A stretch of 64,000 bases of DNA, from positions 151,659-215,658 of the forward strand of contig JAWVEN010000008.1 of assembly GCA_033856675.1 (NCBI GenBank), given 5' to 3'. The notes under the pieces are model-generated. The model was given only the letters and a program-made list of their open reading frames with translations. It did no database searches and was not told the DNA's origin. Source of the stretch: Gaiellales bacterium. GTDB taxonomy: Bacteria; Actinomycetota; Thermoleophilia; Gaiellales; JAICJC01. A program made the position numbers and the translations under genes. Shown here piece by piece: positions 883-42,344 of this stretch (position 1 is the first letter of the stretch; every line of letters begins with the position of its first letter).

Positions 883-1071
883 GAGGGCGGAGCCTATCCG
901 AGCCGCTTCGGGTGGGGTCCCAGGCGCGAGCGGTGTCCACTACGGCCGCTTTATTACGGCTGTTTATGGCATGTCTTGACTGGTGTAACTCATGGAAGCA
1001 TCACGGCAAGCTGAGCTATACGATGCCTCGATCCCACCAGCCGAAGAGTGGGCGATAGGAGGTTTCACAAC

Positions 1072-33568: not shown

Positions 33569-34714
33569 ATGGACTCCGAGTCGTTTGCGGTGGCCGACGA
33601 CGCCGGTGCCCGGCTCCGGGAGCCGTTCGAGCGCGGCCAGGCCCTGACGGTCGGAGTCGAGGAGGAGCTGCTGCTGGTCGATCCGCAGACGCTCGACCTC
33701 GTGTCGCCGGCCCACGATCTCGTCGCGGAGCTCGGCGATTCCGGACGGTTTCGGAAGGAGTTGTCGGCCGCACAGATCGAGATCCTGACCCCGGTGTGTG
33801 CGACCACCGGCGAGGCTGCGCAGGCCATCGCGGCCGGCCGGCGGGTGGTGATCGAGCACCTTGCGGGTCGAGCTCGCCTCGCCGGCGTGGGCGCGCACCC
33901 CTTCGCGCGGCCGTGGAGCGATTTCGCAGAGGGTGAGCGGTATGACGTCATCGGACGCGACTATCGGTGGGGCGCCCGCGTCGGCGCTCTTGCGGCCGGG
34001 CTGCACATCCACGTCGCCGTCGACGGCGCCGACCGCGCGCTCGCCGTCCTCAACGCCCTCCGAGGGCTGATGCCGGAACTGGCTGCCCTGGCCGCGGGGG
34101 CGCCGTTCTTCGACCGCCGCGACACCGGCCTCGCGAGCATCAGGCCCAAGCTGGCGGATGCGTTGCCCCGGCAAGGCGTCTCGCCGGCGTTCCGCGACTG
34201 GGATCACTACGCGCGGCTGCTCGAGTGGGGGAGGCGGAGCGGCACGTTCCTCGATCCGTCGACGCTCTGGTGGGAGTGCCGCCTGCAGCCGCGCCTGGGG
34301 ACGGTCGAGATGCGCGCGCCCGATGCACAGGCTTCGACCGAGGATGTCGAAGCGGTCGTCGCCGTGGCTCACGCGTTGGTGGGGCAGCTCGCGGAGCGCT
34401 ACGACGTGGGCGAGGCGCTGCCCGTCCACCCGTCCGAGCTGATCGAGGAGAACCGGTGGCTCGCCTGCCGGGATGGCGCCGACGGCACGCTGATCGATTT
34501 GGACTCGGGTGAGCCCGTGCCGACGCGCCGCCGCCTGCTCGACCTGATCGACTCCCTCGAGCCGGTCGCCGAACGGCTCGGCGGCACGACGGGGCTTGAC
34601 CGGGCACGCGAGTTGGTCGGGGACGGCGGCGCTGCGCGGCAGCGCCGGATTGCGTCCAAGCAGGGGCTGGACGGCCTCGTGCGTTGGCTCGCCGATCGCA
34701 CCGAGCGTGCTTGA
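33569..34714 (+). CDS. Carboxylate-amine ligase, glutamate-cysteine ligase family 2 (YbdK type)
   Basis: Start trimmed to MDSESF... LTVGVEEELLLVD, LSAAQIEILTPV, GLHIHVAV, WWECRLQPRLGTVEMRAPD. Confidence 0.85.
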   Translation: MDSESFAVADDAGARLREPFERGQALTVGVEEELLLVDPQTLDLVSPAHDLVAELGDSGRFRKELSAAQIEILTPVCATTGEAAQAIAAGRRVVIEHLAGRARLAGVGAHPFARPWSDFAEGERYDVIGRDYRWGARVGALAAGLHIHVAVDGADRALAVLNALRGLMPELAALAAGAPFFDRRDTGLASIRPKLADALPRQGVSPAFRDWDHYARLLEWGRRSGTFLDPSTLWWECRLQPRLGTVEMRAPDAQASTEDVEAVVAVAHALVGQLAERYDVGEALPVHPSELIEENRWLACRDGADGTLIDLDSGEPVPTRRRLLDLIDSLEPVAERLGGTTGLDRARELVGDGGAARQRRIASKQGLDGLVRWLADRTERA

Positions 34715-34743
34715 CCGTGCCCCCGGCGGGGTACCTCTTCGTC

Positions 34744-35001
34744 ATGACCGATCACGCCACGATCACCCCCTATCCGGACGGCCCGCTGATCGTGCGCGGC
34801 CCGTTCCAGATCACCGACGAACATGGCACGCCGATCGATGCCGGCAGGCGCACGGTCGCGCTGTGCCGCTGCGGCCGCTCGCAGCTCCGCCCATTCTGCG
34901 ACGGCTCGCATCTGACAGCCCGTTTCCGAGCTGAGGGCGGCGTCAGCCCACGTGCCGCGCAGCGGCACCTGCTCGATGACTCAGACTACGGGGATCGGTA
35001 G
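34744..35001 (+). CDS. CDGSH iron-sulfur domain-containing protein
   Basis: ALCRCGRSQLRPFCDGSH matches C-x-C-x2-S-x3-P-x-C-D-G-S-H. Confidence 0.85.
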   Translation: MTDHATITPYPDGPLIVRGPFQITDEHGTPIDAGRRTVALCRCGRSQLRPFCDGSHLTARFRAEGGVSPRAAQRHLLDDSDYGDR

Positions 35002-36027
35002 CCGCAGAGACGAGCGGGGCTCGCTCCAGGCGCCCAGCAGCGCGCGGGCGAAGCGATCCTCCAGTGCGAGCAACGCAGCTGCGCCGAAGAGCACGTCGGC
35101 CGTGAGGCTCGGCTCGGCGACCGCCAGTCCCTGAGCGAGGTCGTGCGCGGCGATCGCCTCGTGCACCGCGTCTGCCTCCACGTGCTCGTCGTAGAACTCC
35201 AGCGCGTCACCGACGACGCCGAGCCGCCTCAGTCCTGCGCCGTAGCGGCGGTTCGGCACGGGCGAGGTCATCTCGAACATCGCCAGGTGGCCGACAATCG
35301 CGCCGCGAAGCCTGCGGTGCAGGCCGAACAGCGACATCAGGTTGACCGTCGCAAGCGTCGTGCCCGGCAGGTGGTCGAGGTAGGCGCCGTATCTGCCGTC
35401 GAGCCCCAGGGCACGCATCGTGCGTTCGAAGAGGGTGGAGTGCATGCGCCCCGGCCGGCCGCCGCCGTACTCGTCGGCCTGCACCTCGATCAGCGCCTCC
35501 TTCGCGCGGCCCGAGAGCCGCGGCACAGCCCAGGAGTGCGGGTCGGCCTCCTTCAGCTGGTACCCGGAGCGGTGGACCACGAACTCGCGGAACTCGCCCA
35601 GTCCCGCGCGTCGCTCGAGGTGACGCGAAAGCGATGGGCCGTCGTCGGCGGCGGCCAGCTCGCGCAGCCGGCGCTCGACCTCGGATGGCGGAGTGGGATC
35701 AACCGGCACCGCCTCGCGCAGCGCCCGTTCGAACGGCTCCTCCAGCTCCAGGCGCGCGGCGATCAGCGCGGGCTCCCACTCCCAGTACTGGTCGACGCCC
35801 GAGAACGAGCGGTAGTGGAGCTCGTAGCAGACGTAGAGCGCCAGGTGGAGGTCATCGTCGGACAGCGGGTCGTCGGCTCGCACCCGGCCGAGCCGGACCG
35901 GCCCGGGCTCGCCGGCAAGGCGACGGACGAGGTGCTCGCTGAGGGGGCCGCGCGGCTCCGGCAGAGCAGGCGGCGCGGGCGCGCCGACTGCCTCCTCCTC
36001 GAGCACTCGTGCCATGTTGGGATCCAT
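34981..36027 (-). CDS. Iron-containing redox enzyme family protein (heme-oxygenase-like di-metal fold)
   Basis: LYVCYELHYRSF..., LIEVQADEYGGGRPGRMHSTLF..., AMFEMTS..., EFYDEHVEADAVHEAIA. These are E/H-rich helices of the family. Confidence 0.75.
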   Translation of the reverse strand: MDPNMARVLEEEAVGAPAPPALPEPRGPLSEHLVRRLAGEPGPVRLGRVRADDPLSDDDLHLALYVCYELHYRSFSGVDQYWEWEPALIAARLELEEPFERALREAVPVDPTPPSEVERRLRELAAADDGPSLSRHLERRAGLGEFREFVVHRSGYQLKEADPHSWAVPRLSGRAKEALIEVQADEYGGGRPGRMHSTLFERTMRALGLDGRYGAYLDHLPGTTLATVNLMSLFGLHRRLRGAIVGHLAMFEMTSPVPNRRYGAGLRRLGVVGDALEFYDEHVEADAVHEAIAAHDLAQGLAVAEPSLTADVLFGAAALLALEDRFARALLGAWSEPRSSLRLPIPVV

Positions 36028-36076
36028 TCCCCGAATGTCCCTCGGGAAAACGGATACGCGTGTCGCGTGGCGGGTG

Positions 36077-36844
36077 CTACAACTGCCAGGCCGGCCGCAG
36101 CCTGGCCGGTGCTGACTTCGGCCGGGCCTTGTCGGTCTCGTCGGCCGGGAGGATGTCGAGGGCCAGGCGAACGTTGTCCGGCCTCGCAGGTGCCGCGGTC
36201 TCGTTGACCCGCTCGATCCACCGCCGGATGATGTCCCCGGCCACCGCGGAGCATTCCAGGAACGAACACCCGAGTACCTGGTTTCCAGGATTGTCGCCCG
36301 GGCGGACAGACTTCACGCGCAGCTCGCAGTCGATCATCCCTTCGAAGACCCGCACCCGCAGCCGCAGCCGGTCATTCTCGCGTGGGCGCGTGTCGGCGAC
36401 GCTGAGGGCCAGGCCGCCTTCGGATACGTCGGTGATGACGGCGCTCAGCGGCTCGTCGGGCGCGATCCGGTAGCAGACTAGGGCGGTGACGACGGCGGGC
36501 ACGTGCAACTCGGTGCGCTCACTGCGACGCTGGACGCCCTGTGGCGACGACTCGATCACGCGGAGCACGAGAGCGGCGCGGGAGCCGGACGAGGCGGTGA
36601 CCGTCTCGATCGCGGCCGTCACGTGGTGCGGCGTGTCGTCGACCATGACGCGGCAGGAGAGGTGCATGCCGGTGCGCACCTGAAGTCGCGGGGCGCTGGC
36701 TCGGAGGGTGTCCGCATCGCAGCTGATCGTCCAGATCTCGACCGTGTCGCCGATCTCGGTCGTCATCTCGATCGCCGACTCGTCGACGAGCACGCGCGCT
36801 GAGCGCGAGAAGGTTTCGTCCGATGAGATGGCGTCGTATCCCAT
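36077..36844 (-). CDS. PilZ domain-containing protein (c-di-GMP receptor candidate)
   Basis: Start trimmed to MGYDAISS... RxxxR (RRSER) and D-x-S-x-x-G (DVSEGG) motifs at the appropriate spacing. Confidence 0.7.
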   Translation of the reverse strand: MGYDAISSDETFSRSARVLVDESAIEMTTEIGDTVEIWTISCDADTLRASAPRLQVRTGMHLSCRVMVDDTPHHVTAAIETVTASSGSRAALVLRVIESSPQGVQRRSERTELHVPAVVTALVCYRIAPDEPLSAVITDVSEGGLALSVADTRPRENDRLRLRVRVFEGMIDCELRVKSVRPGDNPGNQVLGCSFLECSAVAGDIIRRWIERVNETAAPARPDNVRLALDILPADETDKARPKSAPARLRPAWQL

Positions 36845-36908
36845 GTCCCTCGCGTGCGTATCGGCGGGACAGAACGGCGGCTTGAGTGGTACGGAAGCGC
36901 CGAGCCGA

Positions 36909-37589
36909 TCAGCCGTCGAGCTCGATGCGCATGGCCGCGGCGAGCGCGCCGCCGAGGGAGTGCTTCGCCTCTCCGAAGCGCACGGTGAGCGGGCCGCCGA
37001 ACGGCTGGCGATCGAGGATTTCGGCGTGATCTCCGAGGCAGACCTCGAGCTTCTCCAGGTATCGCAGCATCTCCGGGTCAGCGTCGGAGATGCGGACGAA
37101 CCGCCCACGATCGCCGGGTTGCATGTCGGCAAGGCTCGTCGTCGTTCCTTCGTCGATGACGAGGTCGGCGTTCGGGATCGGATCGCCGTGTGGATCGTGC
37201 GTCGGATTGTTCAGCTTTGCCGCGATCCGGTCGGAGAGGTCAGCGCTGAGGACGTGCTCGAGTGCCTCGGCTTCCTCGTGCACCCGATCGGGCGGCACGT
37301 CGAGATGTTCGACCAGGTAGAGCTCGAGCAGGCGGTGCTGGCGCATCACCGAGAGCGCCAGGCGCTCCCCGGCGGCGGTCAGCCTGACGCCATGGTACGG
37401 AGTGTGGGATGCCAGCCCGCGCTCCGCGAGCTTCTTCACCATCGACGAGACAGAGGCCGGCGTGACGCGCAGGCGCTCGGCCAGCGCGGTCGTCGTCACG
37501 GTGCCCTCGCCGCGGCGCTCGAGCGCGTAGATGGCCTTCGCATAGTCCTCGATCGCGGCCGACCGCCGGCTGTCTTGCAGGGCGCTCAT
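36909..37589 (-). CDS. DtxR/MntR/IdeR family metal-dependent transcriptional regulator with a C-terminal FeoA/SH3-like domain
   Basis: Start trimmed to MSALQDSRRSAAIEDYAKAIYALERRGEGTVTTTALAERLRVTPASVSSMVKKL... HDPHGDPIP. ATGA overlap with the ZIP gene. Confidence 0.9.
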   Translation of the reverse strand: MSALQDSRRSAAIEDYAKAIYALERRGEGTVTTTALAERLRVTPASVSSMVKKLAERGLASHTPYHGVRLTAAGERLALSVMRQHRLLELYLVEHLDVPPDRVHEEAEALEHVLSADLSDRIAAKLNNPTHDPHGDPIPNADLVIDEGTTTSLADMQPGDRGRFVRISDADPEMLRYLEKLEVCLGDHAEILDRQPFGGPLTVRFGEAKHSLGGALAAAMRIELDG

Positions 37590-38827
37590 CAGACGCTCAC
37601 CAGGAGCCCGGTTGCGAACATCATCGCCATCCCGGCCATCAGACCGGCAACCGCGGCGGGGTGCAGGAGCCGTCCGGCGTCGTCTCGGACGGAAGGGGCG
37701 AGCTGGACGATGACCTGGACGATGGCGCCGGCGCCGAAGCCGAAGAGGAAGGCCGCAAGGCTCGAGTTGAACGCGGCGGCGCCGATCCACGCACCGAGCA
37801 CGGCAGGGGCGCCCGCGATCAGGCCGAGCATGACCAACCGGCCGAGCGAAGGGCGGCGGTCAGCCAGCGGAGCCACGATGGCGATGCCCTCGGTGGTGTT
37901 GTGGATGGCGAATCCGACCACCAGGAAGGCGCCGAGTGCCAGCGCGCCGACGGAGTACGCGGCGCCGATCGCGACGCCCTCTCCGAGGTTGTGCAGGCCG
38001 ATGCCGACCGCCACGAGCAGCGCGAGCGTGCCGCCGGACGACCCCGCTTCGCGCGCGTGGCGTTCACGCTGCGCAAGCCATGCCGAGACGCCGCTCAGGG
38101 ACAGGTACGACGCAGCGGCGCCGATCAGCACCAGCGCCGGGCCGCCAAAGGCCTGGGAGCCCTGCCCCGCGAGGTCAAAGCCCTCGAGCGTCGCATCGAC
38201 GGCGAGGATGGCGAGCAACCCGATGGTCAGCGCCATCAGCACCCGCAGCCAGCGCGACGCCATGCTGCGAATCCAGGGTAGCCACAGCATGCCGAGGGCG
38301 ATCGGGATGACGCCGACGTAGACCCCGAGCAGCGCCATCAGCCCGAAGAACGAGAGATCCGTCTGCGGCGTGGCAACGGCGGCGGGGATCTCGTGGGCGA
38401 TCGTCCCGCCGTTGGATGTCAGCAGCACGACCTCGTACGCCTCGCCTTCGATCCATGGTTGCTGGATCCGGACGGTCGTCGTGTCGAGCCGCCCGATCGG
38501 CTCGTCGGCGCCCGAGAACTGCACGAAGGCGTCGTTGACCATCACCTGCGCGATGGAGACGTCGTCCGGCCCGTCGTTGCGGACTGAAAGCTCGATGACG
38601 CCCGGACGAAGCGTCGTCTTTTCGGCCACGAGCTCTTCCGCCGGCGGACCGCGCCGCTCGCCGAGGCCAGGCCCGCCCAGCGCCACGAAAGCGCCGATCG
38701 CCGCGGCGATCAGAAGGAGGGGGCCAACCGCCAGCACCCATCCGGGCAGTTGGCCGGCTCGCCCGGCGGCCGCTTTCCTGCGGTCGACAGTGCCGTCGTT
38801 TTCGAGGTGGGGGTCGCTTTCGAGCAT
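37589..38827 (-). CDS. ZIP family metal transporter with an extra N-terminal TM helix plus an extracytoplasmic domain of about 100 aa
   Basis: C-terminal core GIGLHNLGEGVAIGAAY...GFAIHNTTEGIAIVAPL holds the ZIP metal-binding helices. The N-terminal anchor and beta-rich insert precede the core. Confidence 0.85.
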   Translation of the reverse strand: MLESDPHLENDGTVDRRKAAAGRAGQLPGWVLAVGPLLLIAAAIGAFVALGGPGLGERRGPPAEELVAEKTTLRPGVIELSVRNDGPDDVSIAQVMVNDAFVQFSGADEPIGRLDTTTVRIQQPWIEGEAYEVVLLTSNGGTIAHEIPAAVATPQTDLSFFGLMALLGVYVGVIPIALGMLWLPWIRSMASRWLRVLMALTIGLLAILAVDATLEGFDLAGQGSQAFGGPALVLIGAAASYLSLSGVSAWLAQRERHAREAGSSGGTLALLVAVGIGLHNLGEGVAIGAAYSVGALALGAFLVVGFAIHNTTEGIAIVAPLADRRPSLGRLVMLGLIAGAPAVLGAWIGAAAFNSSLAAFLFGFGAGAIVQVIVQLAPSVRDDAGRLLHPAAVAGLMAGMAMMFATGLLVSV

Positions 38828-38828
38828 G

Positions 38829-39866
38829 TCAGGTGACCTTGAAGAACCCCTGCCAGCCGAGCTCGGTGAACTCCGACTGGTGTGCGTGGAACATGAAGTC
38901 GCCGGCGTACGGGAAGCGCCACTCGACGATCCCCCGCTGGCCCTGGCACAGCATCACCGTGTCGGTGAACTCGCTCGGCGTCTTGCCGGTGCCCGTCGGG
39001 AAGTAGTTGAACAGGTTGCCGTGCAGATGGAACGAGTTGATCAGGTCGTATTCGAGGATGTTGGCCAGGTAGACCCTGACCAGCTCGCCTCGCTTCGCCT
39101 CGATCGGCTTGTCCATGTATGCGAACGGGATCGTGTTTGCCGCGTACAGCTCGTTGGCGCGGTCGAAGTTCGTGTCGAAGCCGTTCATGACCATCACCAT
39201 CTCGTCGGCCTTTTCGCGGGCATCCGGCGGGTCGATGATCAGCACGCCGTACAGCCCCTTGGCGATGTGCTCCGCGAGGGGGCGCACGTGGCAGTGGTAC
39301 AGATGGACGCCTGCGGGCAGCGCGTCGAACTCGTAGACCGTGCTGCCGCCCGGTGCGATCTCGCCGGCTCCGACCCCGGGTACGCCGTCCATCTCCGACG
39401 GGTGGATGCCGTGGAAGTGGATCGTGTGGGGGTGGCGCGAGCTGTTGACGAACGTGATCCGGAGCCGGTCGCCCTCGCGTGCCCGAAGCGTGGGGCCGGG
39501 GATCCGCCCGTTGTATGTCCAGGCCGCGAAGCGCACGCCCGGCGCGACCTCGATGTCGCGCTCCAGTGCGTGCAGCTCCCACTCGCGCTGGGTGCGGCCG
39601 CCGGCGAGCTGGGTTGTGGTGCCCCAATCGAAGTCGCGCAGCAGCTCATGCGGATCGAAGCCGTTCGCCACGTGGTCGACCGTCCGGCCGTCGCGGAACG
39701 CGGCGTGCCCGCCGGCATGGTCGCTCGCTCCGTGGCTGTGGTCACCGTCGTCGGCAAGTGCCGTCGCGTCCGTGCCGGGCAAGCCGTGCGAGTTCAAGAG
39801 CACCGCGCCCGCTCCCAGTATCGGCACGGATCCGGCAAGGAGATCTCGACGCGTTAGAGGGGGCAC
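38829..39866 (-). CDS. Two-domain multicopper oxidase with a twin-arginine signal
   Basis: GTG start. TRRDLLAG TAT motif. Copper ligand motifs HTIHFHG, HLYHCH, FHAH. Confidence 0.85.
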   Translation of the reverse strand: MPPLTRRDLLAGSVPILGAGAVLLNSHGLPGTDATALADDGDHSHGASDHAGGHAAFRDGRTVDHVANGFDPHELLRDFDWGTTTQLAGGRTQREWELHALERDIEVAPGVRFAAWTYNGRIPGPTLRAREGDRLRITFVNSSRHPHTIHFHGIHPSEMDGVPGVGAGEIAPGGSTVYEFDALPAGVHLYHCHVRPLAEHIAKGLYGVLIIDPPDAREKADEMVMVMNGFDTNFDRANELYAANTIPFAYMDKPIEAKRGELVRVYLANILEYDLINSFHLHGNLFNYFPTGTGKTPSEFTDTVMLCQGQRGIVEWRFPYAGDFMFHAHQSEFTELGWQGFFKVT

Positions 39867-39871
39867 GATCC

Positions 39872-39901
39872 AAATCTTAGCACGTCTAAATCTTATGTAC
39901 A
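39872..39901 (-). promoter_or_regulatory. Candidate leaderless promoter plus operator of the MCO-ZIP-DtxR operon
   Basis: On the minus strand: TGTACA-N16-TAAGAT-N7-GTG(start). TAAGATTT is directly repeated with a 16-nt period (plus AAATCTTA at 39872-39879 and 39888-39895). The inverted repeat TTAG-cacgt-CTAA lies at 39877-39889. Confidence 0.4.
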
Positions 39902-41715: not shown

Positions 41716-41849
41716 GGCCGCGACCCTGCTGCGACCCCCGCAATAGGGTCGCAAGCGGTACAAAAGCGGTCGGCACGGCGCGCAATGGCGGAGATGCCGA
41801 ATCGGCCTGTTTGCAAGGAAGACGGCCGCTTTCATGGTGAAACCAAGGA

Positions 41850-41922
41850 TGGAGCGTACCGGGATCGAACCGGTGACCTCCGGCTTGCAAAGCCGGCGCT
41901 CTCCCAGCTGAGCTAACGCCCC
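41850..41922 (-). tRNA. tRNA-Ala (anticodon UGC), CCA not encoded
   Basis: GGGGCGTTAGCTCAGCTGGGAGAGCGCCGGCTTTGCAAGCCGGAGGTCACCGGTTCGATCCCGGTACGCTCCA. Folds as a cloverleaf with 7/4/5/5-bp stems. G3:U70 identity pair. Anticodon loop TT-TGC-AA. Confidence 0.95.
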
Positions 41923-42344
41923 AGAATCTGATGGCTGAACCGAATCCGTGGATTCATGCTCTCCCGCTTTTCAATCTAGCTGATTGCTTTGCGCACGCGC
42001 GCCCAGCGACCCGCTCGAGCAGTGCGTCAACGTTAGGGGAGGTCTGTGGCTGGGTACGTCATGGTCGCTTGGCGCGGGCCGCGCAACGAGACGAGGACCT
42101 TGTACACGGCTTGAGAACCCAGGCCGGTCAATGACCACTCATTTTGGTGGAGGTGAGAGGCCAATGGCCATTCGAGACCGCTGCTCGCTGAGGCGACAGA
42201 ACGAGGTCTTGACGCCTTGTCGGCGGAAGAACGATGTCGGCGCCACGAGGGCTGCCGGCTCGTGATAAGGATGTTCGATTCGAACAGCACGGACGCAACC
42301 GAGCCTGGTCTGGCCGTGTCGCCGTCCACGGCGACTTAGCGAGT

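Follow-up and report, generated by a model that had tools for sequence, protein, structure and literature searches.

A multicopper oxidase–ZIP permease gene pair with a candidate MntR-type operator in a Gaiellales bacterium, and its counterparts across bacteria and archaea

An extracytoplasmic copper oxidase is genetically coupled to a metal permease in the yeast Fet3p/Ftr1p system and in the bacterial systems EfeUOB and FtrABCD. The same logic is found in a 64,000-nucleotide stretch of DNA from a Gaiellales bacterium (contig JAWVEN010000008.1, positions 151,659 to 215,658 of the forward strand; hereafter the window), which has a high GC content of about 69%. In the window, the gene for a two-domain multicopper oxidase (MCO) with a signal for twin-arginine translocation (Tat) adjoins the gene for a ZIP permease, and a gene for a DtxR-family repressor of the MntR type follows. 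The window differs from the described systems in that its permease is a ZIP and not an FTR1/OFeT protein with a REXXE motif, its oxidase is of the trimeric two-domain type and not of the three-domain type, and its sensor is a manganese sensor, in place of iron control. The explanation that we favor on balance is a three-gene, manganese-repressed operon, mco-zip-mntR, in which the ZIP would import Mn2+ and the oxidase would work at the permease.

A closer counterpart is known from ammonia-oxidising archaea. Papers on these organisms tabulate “MCO1 + ZIP”, that is, MCO1 with an adjacent zinc permease, crediting Kerou et al. 2016, and the analogy with Fet3p has been published for this archaeal pair, with the MCO oxidising Cu+ to Cu2+, which the permease would then import (PMC7785015, PMC5817080, PMC7819960). 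Reyes et al. 2020 (PMC7785015) described MCO1 as confined to thaumarchaeal genomes. The original prediction for the window held that an MCO joined to a ZIP had not been described; since the pair had already been published for archaea, together with the Fet3p analogy, this novelty is only partly justified. In the literature on the bacterial pair, we found no description apart from a passing remark on LMCO3 of Rhodococcus opacus R7, which is 57% identical to the oxidase of Protein Data Bank (PDB) entry 3gdc and lies near copper-resistance and “zinc-transporter” genes. The archaeal and window pairs both consist of a two-domain MCO adjoining a ZIP, and they are homologous, including the N-terminal domain of the permease; sequence identity indicates orthologous MCO and ZIP genes in the same order. 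In contrast, the published hypothesis for the archaeal pair is copper uptake, whereas the bacterial pair has its own manganese-type DtxR regulator and an operator box in common with mntH. The window thus has a bacterial variant, under predicted MntR control, of a pair of genes that is known from archaea but uncharacterised there. What is new is the breadth of the pair across two domains of life, its dedicated ectodomain, and an MntR box that is common with mntH and also lies upstream of the archaeal genes. As far as we found in the literature, an MntR-like box ahead of the archaeal pairs has not been reported before.

Control of a ZIP importer by manganese has been described in Corynebacterium glutamicum: according to PMC11933003, which cites Baumgart & Frunzke 2015, MntR represses the ZIP gene mntT (Cg1623) under manganese. 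ZupT and TmpA also import manganese. The window resembles the MntR–MntT system in that an actinobacterial DtxR-type MntR controls a ZIP importer by manganese, and differs from it in that no MCO partner has been reported for C. glutamicum. The C. glutamicum operator (TGTTCAATGCGTTGAACA) is presumably different from that of the window. DR2539 of Deinococcus radiodurans, the regulator of mntH (dr1709), has an acidic primary metal site and the operator core TTAG-N6-CTAA in common with the system described here. DR2539 controls an NRAMP gene, whereas the window's repressor would control the MCO–ZIP pair through a box that has a 5-nt spacer and a right half that doubles as a -10 element.

The MCO gene (38829-39866, minus strand; 345 aa) starts with GTG, and the genes for the ZIP permease (37589-38827, minus strand; 412 aa) and the DtxR-family repressor (36909-37589, minus strand; 226 aa) follow it. 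Together with two further genes discussed below, they form an array of five co-directional minus-strand reading frames, spaced successively by a 1-nt gap, a 1-nt overlap and gaps of 64 and 49 nt. All five reading frames and the distances between them were confirmed as originally predicted. One correction concerns the ZIP/DtxR junction, which reads TGATG and not ATGA: the A of the ZIP stop codon is also the A of the ATG start, and the overlap is not one of 4 nt.

The MCO and ZIP genes are tightly coupled. A scan of one genome per species yielded 80 Solirubrobacterales-type loci encoding the ZIP, and the MCO gene lies immediately upstream of the ZIP gene in 78 of them; the contigs of the other two end too early. 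A DtxR gene comes after the ZIP gene in about 62 of the 80 loci, and when all reading frames of these loci were clustered, only MCO, ZIP and DtxR exceeded about a quarter of the loci. The closest named relatives of the ZIP belong to Gaiellales and Solirubrobacterales, within the class Thermoleophilia. An exhaustive profile search placed 388 clusters (50% identity) in the extended ZIP family at E < 1e-30, many of them aligning from about residue 25 to the end, and copies of the pair number in the thousands in soil metagenomes. In all eight distant ZIP contexts that were readable, a two-domain MCO abuts or overlaps the ZIP start; the junctions mostly fall within 5 nt, the extremes being an overlap of 11 nt and a gap of 63 nt. 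The distant pairs are found in Haloferax mediterranei (L081), beside a halocyanin-like gene and SCO1; in a Thaumarchaeota-like genome (L084); in a member of Gemmatimonadota (L088); in an archaeal contig with DtxR and NikR genes as neighbours (L089); in L086/L087, with NRAMP and Usp genes downstream; and in L085, L090 and L091.

Look-ups from the oxidase side, seeded with the sequence of 3gdc, found the pair in three of three cases. Arthrobacter QXT-31 has a divergent dtxR gene and then mco-zip, Nocardia has mco-zip and then a Rieske gene, and a plasmid of R. opacus B4 (L094) has dtxR-mco-zip with overlapping junctions, located in a copper-resistance-like island (CopC, CtaG, DUF305, DsbA and VKOR). 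A DtxR gene thus adjoins the pair in Arthrobacter and Rhodococcus, as it does in the archaeal contig L089. The distant MCOs are 43-66% identical to that of the window. When metagenomes were scanned with a protein that carries the name “Thaumarchaeota archaeon”, 27 marine loci were obtained; in these, the MCO gene is next to the ZIP gene in 26 of the 26 loci that extend upstream of ZIP. The marine MCOs are 48-58% identical to the window's (53-58% where most of the gene is present), and the ZIPs are 34-40% identical over a length that includes the extra N-terminal domain. Every ZIP found beside one of these MCOs aligns across that domain. The tight coupling that had been proposed from the window was confirmed by this synteny check, the pair being kept in 78 of the 80 order-level loci and in every distant context. 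These results indicate that the MCO–ZIP pair is obligate across two domains of life, in Actinomycetota, Gemmatimonadota, Halobacteria and Thaumarchaeota.

The Pfam Zip family matches the permease at residues 255-405 only (33.6 bits, cut-off 35.1), and its score with the NCBIfam ZupT model is 38 bits (cut-off 252). An AlphaFold model built on a 69-sequence alignment (pLDDT 87.9, pTM 0.84) predicts a cytoplasmic N-terminus, a transmembrane (TM) anchor at residues 29-49, a beta-sandwich at residues 67-147 and an eight-helix core at residues 158-411. The core resembles BbZIP (Foldseek E = 8e-7, target-normalised TM-score 0.67; phmmer 5e-10) and contains the ZupT-like metal motifs H279-N280-x-x-E283-G in TM4 and H309-N310-x-x-E313-G in TM5, in which conservation is 96-100% at each of H279, N280, E283, H309, N310 and E313. 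More than 7,800 ZIP homologues align over the full length of about 400 aa. Together with the confident model, they establish that the predicted N-terminal anchor and extracytoplasmic beta domain are real and do not result from a mis-called start.

Because of the positive-inside rule and the known topology of ZIP proteins, the beta-sandwich would be at the outer face of the membrane, as would the exported MCO. Modelled alone (pLDDT 89.7), the N-terminal domain finds its best structural matches in the beta-sandwiches of archaeal type IV pilin, FlaF and FlaG (E 9e-5 to 6e-3, query-normalised TM 0.57-0.72), while a Pfam search with the domain gave no match even at E = 10. The residues conserved in the ectodomain are N84, Q94, R113 and W125 and the carboxylates E64, E69, D99 and E129; its alignment contains no conserved His, Cys or Met. 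Copper chaperones were considered as relatives of the ectodomain and rejected, as ECuC, PCuAC and CopC match it at E 0.02 or worse and it has no conserved His, Met or Cys. Since the ectodomain has a pilin/FlaF/FlaG-like fold and lacks conserved His, Cys and Met, we lean towards a role in docking the oxidase rather than in capturing metal.

The oxidase contains two cupredoxin domains, matched by Cu-oxidase_3 (2e-28) and Cu-oxidase_2 (3e-24) of Pfam. It is a close homologue of the PDB entries 3gdc, an Arthrobacter multicopper oxidase (E = 2e-123), and 7rab (8e-106), and has its type 1 (T1) copper site in domain 1 (type C). The alignment points to H147, C192 and H200 as T1 ligands, with L205 in the axial position, and to H150, H152, H191, H193, H280, H282, H327 and H329 as ligands of the trinuclear cluster; the motifs HTIHFH, HCH...H, HLH and HAH are present. 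Each His was allotted to the T1 site or the trinuclear cluster by analogy with NirK and type C MCOs. Near the N-terminus, the sequence reads as a Tat signal, with the motif TRRDLL, TRRDLLAGSVPILGAGAVLL and then A-L-A/D as a plausible cleavage site. The export signal and both Pfam domains bear out the Tat-exported two-domain MCO that had been predicted.

We aligned the window's MCO with 10 distant orthologues. Twin arginines are present in nine of these 11 sequences, and the copper-ligand positions are conserved in 10, that is, in all except the L086 orthologue (L086:3776-4849). In that protein, FQCH replaces the FHAH of the others, so that one His of the trinuclear cluster is missing, and an N-terminal hydrophobic anchor takes the place of the twin-arginine motif. 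After the Tat signal, the window's MCO has a His- and Gly-rich tail (residues 43-65, window 39672-39740; DHSHGASDHAGGH...VDH). Similar tails are present in the Arthrobacter, Nocardia, Rhodococcus and L090 orthologues and not in the archaeal ones, and the tail may be a metal-capturing arm. The Arthrobacter QXT-31 oxidase gene within the dtxR/mco-zip locus is 95% identical to 3gdc. In the functional literature on 3gdc and 7rab we found no study; 3gdc appears only as a structural reference, and no paper was found for 7rab. We also considered whether this type of MCO is the manganese oxidase of Arthrobacter QXT-31, and rejected the idea, as that oxidase is boxA, located at another genomic position.

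The regulator contains the Pfam domains Fe_dep_repress, Fe_dep_repr_C and FeoA (helix-turn-helix, dimerisation and FeoA/SH3-like), and its best NCBIfam match is MntR. Its best PDB relatives are 5zr4 (3e-46), which we take to be the MntR of Mycobacterium tuberculosis, DR2539 (8pvt; 6e-44) in second place, SloR and ScaR, each with a clearly better score than IdeR or DtxR. Alignment with DtxR places D15, E108, E111 and H112 in the primary metal site and H85, E89 and H104 in the ancillary site. D15 and E108 replace Met10 and Cys102 of DtxR, which is the manganese signature; in the paper on DR2539, acidic primary-site residues are the mark of manganese-specific regulators. The signature is found in the window, in Arthrobacter and in the archaeal contig, and among Solirubrobacterales copies the change of M10 to Asp is found in 55 of 66 and that of C102 to Glu in 57 of 65. 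The manganese-type repressor of the original prediction is upheld by the acidic primary site and by the manganese sensors that are its best structural relatives. The DtxR protein of the R. opacus B4 plasmid (L094:4306-5004) keeps the acidic primary site (D, D, E, H) and has lost the ancillary ligands, with N, K and G for H79, E83 and H98.

A predicted MntR-type operator lies directly upstream of the MCO gene (39871-39894, minus strand; AAGATTTAGACGTGCTAAGATTTG) and scores 27.4 bits against the operator matrix. Its half-sites are TTAG (39889-39886) and CTAA (39880-39877). A -10 hexamer, TAAGAT (39879-39874), lies inside the operator, 7 nt before the GTG start, and TGTACA at 39901-39896 is a possible -35 element. 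The matching element in relatives was found by aligning upstream DNA: a 20-mer with the consensus GATTTAG[A/G]CATGCCATAATC is conserved upstream of the MCO start in 67 Solirubrobacterales loci, and in 48 of these it ends exactly 6 nt ahead of the GTG or ATG start. The perfect palindrome TTTTGACATGTCAAAA also occurs in more distant loci of the scan. The right half of the motif is a -10-like hexamer, CATAAT in the consensus and TAAGAT in the window. The operator would therefore occlude the -10 element, and the mRNA is probably leaderless, because this hexamer sits just ahead of the start codon. Two copies of the octamer TAAGATTT, 16 nt apart (39895-39888 and 39879-39872), form a direct repeat that flanks the window's box.

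DR2539 was crystallised on the operator ATTTTAGTCGCGCCTAAAAT from the mntH promoter, and the core of our motif, TTAG-N6-CTAA, is the core of that operator. The strict core has a background rate of about 1 per Mb. Of 11 distant loci, 7 (among them those of Haloferax, Arthrobacter and Gemmatimonadota) contain a single copy of it, placed in the MCO or dtxR promoter, and it is found in 19 of 19 Thaumarchaeota promoters, often as tandem boxes just before a TATA-like element. In the marine Thaumarchaeota loci L096-L121, two to three tandem TTAG-N6-CTAA-like boxes lie about 35-120 nt upstream of the MCO start. One example reads TTAGACTGGGCTAA and then TTAGCTTAGGGTAA, directly before the TATA-like element TTTAAATA, and a box is also found at L084:3944-3957. 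These tandem boxes look like a DtxR-family operator array on the archaeal MCO1–ZIP promoter. Within the window we found no second strong operator. The only other match to the matrix, at 960-983 (minus strand; CCAGTCAAGACATGCCATAAACAG, 13.9 bits), is doubtful; about 70 nt downstream of it comes an isocitrate/isopropylmalate dehydrogenase-like gene, which is cut by the start of the window, and the match may be a mere promoter resemblance.

We scanned the 80 loci with the operator matrix for additional matches. L037 and L020 have the box ahead of mntH, which is followed by mco-zip-dtxR; the mntH gene scores 518 bits against the NCBIfam MntH model (cut-off 430). In L040, a short reading frame between the box and the MCO gene (L040:5659-5915) consists of an N-terminal segment of MntH joined to a short C-terminal tail, and is apparently what a deletion has left of mntH, a gene that L037 and L020 have intact in this place. 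L019 has a second box ahead of genes for an MntC/EfaA/SloC-like lipoprotein (the binding protein) and an ABC ATPase, and in L086 an NRAMP gene comes after the ZIP gene. The same box is thus common to the pair, mntH and the mntC-like genes, which points to a regulon that includes mntH. We place the pair among manganese-uptake genes because of this regulon, the NRAMP gene of L086 and the precedent of an MntR-controlled ZIP in C. glutamicum. The box that is common with mntH and also lies ahead of the archaeal genes argues that the primary context of the pair is manganese rather than copper.

Based on these features, we propose the following mechanism. The promoter would have its -10 element inside the MntR box; when Mn2+ is sufficient, the repressor would bind and block RNA polymerase, and when manganese is scarce, the operon would be on. 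We consider this part highly probable. The ZIP, with its ZupT-like metal site, would import a divalent cation, which is slightly more likely than not to be Mn2+. The Tat-exported MCO, the obligate partner of the permease, has about even chances of being held there by the ZIP anchor and the Ig-like ectodomain; tethering of this kind would be of most use to cells that lack an outer membrane. The oxidase might act as a gatekeeper that converts competing Fe2+ or Cu+ at the entrance to a permease of broad specificity, so that Mn2+, and not toxic iron or copper, enters the manganese-starved cell. This last step is speculative; we favor it over other roles for the oxidase because oxidation of Mn2+ would work against the co-expressed MntH and because the metal site of the ZIP is of the ordinary divalent type. 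A stricter form of the proposal, held with similar reserve, is that the ZIP works only with its dedicated MCO docked on the pilin-like ectodomain, as an oxidase-coupled or oxidase-gated uptake machine under MntR that extends from soil actinobacteria to haloarchaea and ammonia-oxidising archaea.

Several observations weigh against the manganese operon that we propose. We know of no direct precedent for a gatekeeping oxidase. The score of the permease against the Pfam Zip family falls just below the curated cut-off, so that its family membership rests on structure and motifs. The half-sites of the window's operator are 5 nt apart and not 6, and the adjacent regulator is missing in 18 of the 80 loci. 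Copper genes lie beside several pairs, namely SCO1 and the halocyanin-like gene in Haloferax, CopC and CtaG on the Rhodococcus plasmid and CopD in Arthrobacter, and these neighbourhoods are the main evidence against a purely manganese-related function. In Nitrososphaera viennensis, the archaeal MCO1 and its adjacent permease are modestly upregulated under copper limitation (log2 fold change 0.8-1.3; PMC7785015).

The last two observations speak for copper acquisition, as proposed for the archaeal pair, with the MCO converting Cu+ to Cu2+ and the ZIP importing it, for instance for the cytoplasmic loading of copper enzymes that leave by the Tat route, the MCO among them. The need of a Tat substrate for its cofactor before export and the His-rich tail of the bacterial MCOs also fit this explanation. 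However, the adjacent regulator is of the manganese type in most lineages, the same box precedes mntH and mntC-like genes as well as the archaeal and Haloferax pairs, Met, His and Cys are not conserved in the ectodomain, whose resemblance to copper chaperone folds is weak, and the archaeal induction is small, with conflicting patterns in N. maritimus (PMC7785015). We therefore regard copper acquisition as unlikely. A relay of the Fet3p/Ftr1p kind, in which the MCO oxidises the cargo itself (Mn2+ to Mn3+ or Fe2+ to Fe3+) and hands the product to the ectodomain and the pore, so that the oxidase confers affinity and specificity, appears no more probable. The obligate pairing, with genes that abut or overlap in bacteria and archaea alike, would suit it, the conserved carboxylates of the ectodomain would suit a hard trivalent ion, and the same analogy has already been proposed for the archaeal pair. 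The axial T1 residue of the window's MCO is a non-coordinating Leu, and Fet3p likewise has Leu at this position. Nevertheless, the permease is a ZIP with ordinary HNxxEG divalent sites and not an FTR1-type protein, and to our knowledge no ZIP carries trivalent ions. Furthermore, oxidising Mn2+ in a manganese-starved cell would deprive the co-regulated MntH of its substrate, and the signature of the regulator is manganese, not iron.

A somewhat better, though still improbable, alternative is that the two proteins are co-regulated and physically independent. The ZIP would then be a back-up manganese importer, and the MCO an envelope antioxidant or detoxifier of Fe2+, Cu+ or phenolics when manganese-dependent defences fail; no complex would form, and the ectodomain would do something else. 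Both genes are within the manganese regulon, and MCOs such as CueO protect the envelope. Co-regulation alone, however, is seldom enough to hold two genes directly side by side in Actinomycetota, Gemmatimonadota, Halobacteria and Thaumarchaeota when every other neighbour changes, and the extra N-terminal domain is aligned in every ZIP beside these MCOs.

The original prediction drew a wider module of all five genes, in which a PilZ-domain protein (36077-36844, minus strand; 255 aa) would link the system to c-di-GMP and a heme-oxygenase-like di-metal oxidase of PF14518 (34981-36027, minus strand; 348 aa) would be the client of the imported metal. The domain assignments were right: the PilZ protein matches Pfam PilZ at 6e-11 and has the RxxxR (RRSER) and DxSxxG (DVSEGG) motifs, so that c-di-GMP binding is predicted, and the di-metal protein matches Haem_oxygenas_2 at 4e-60, with weak PDB matches to PbrRohS, SznF and HrmI. 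The genes are co-directional with short gaps, the window scan found no significant terminator and no promoter or terminator above chance inside the array, and the array is retained in the nearest relative (L095, ZIP 87% identical), where the di-metal enzyme is 86% identical. However, neither gene is present in any of the 80 order-level loci or in any of the distant loci, L095 being the only relative that keeps them, and even there tblastn recovered PilZ only as three overlapping pieces, consistent with frameshifts. A weak 5-bp hairpin lies between the PilZ and di-metal genes, and the matrix scan found no MntR box ahead of either gene. The five-gene module is therefore not supported and strikes us as very improbable; its di-metal “client” likewise lacks support, because the gene is absent from 80 of 80 loci and has no operator ahead of it. 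Since the two genes are kept only in the nearest relative, the conserved unit appears to be the three genes mco-zip(-mntR), with the PilZ and heme-oxygenase-like genes as recent, lineage-specific downstream passengers.

The proposed manganese-repressed mco-zip-mntR operon bears on how ZIP transport is viewed. ZIPs are usually studied as stand-alone divalent carriers, and a large, ancient subfamily that is always accompanied by an exported copper oxidase and has an additional outer domain points to a possible redox-assisted uptake. MCO1 is a conserved archaeal gene, and the pair has been discussed there only for copper. The bacterial manganese-type repressor, the operator common with mntH and the same kind of operator in archaea redirect the archaeal question to manganese. 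If the ZIP is coupled to or gated by the oxidase, MCO1 would be reassigned from copper to manganese homeostasis, or to Mn/Fe selectivity, and a redox step would be added to the ZIP transport paradigm. Arthrobacter, Rhodococcus and Haloferax are genetically tractable carriers of the pair, and a crystal structure of the oxidase exists (3gdc).

A manganese riboswitch or other RNA element was also considered for the window and rejected, as Rfam yields only a tRNA-Ala (TGC; 41847-41923, minus strand), which lies between an endonuclease/exonuclease/phosphatase-family gene and the next locus. The five-gene array is flanked by a divergent GAF-ANTAR gene on one side and by a convergent gene for a CDGSH iron-sulfur protein (34684-35001, plus strand) on the other; the 3' end of the latter overlaps the 3' end of the heme-oxygenase-like gene by 21 nt.

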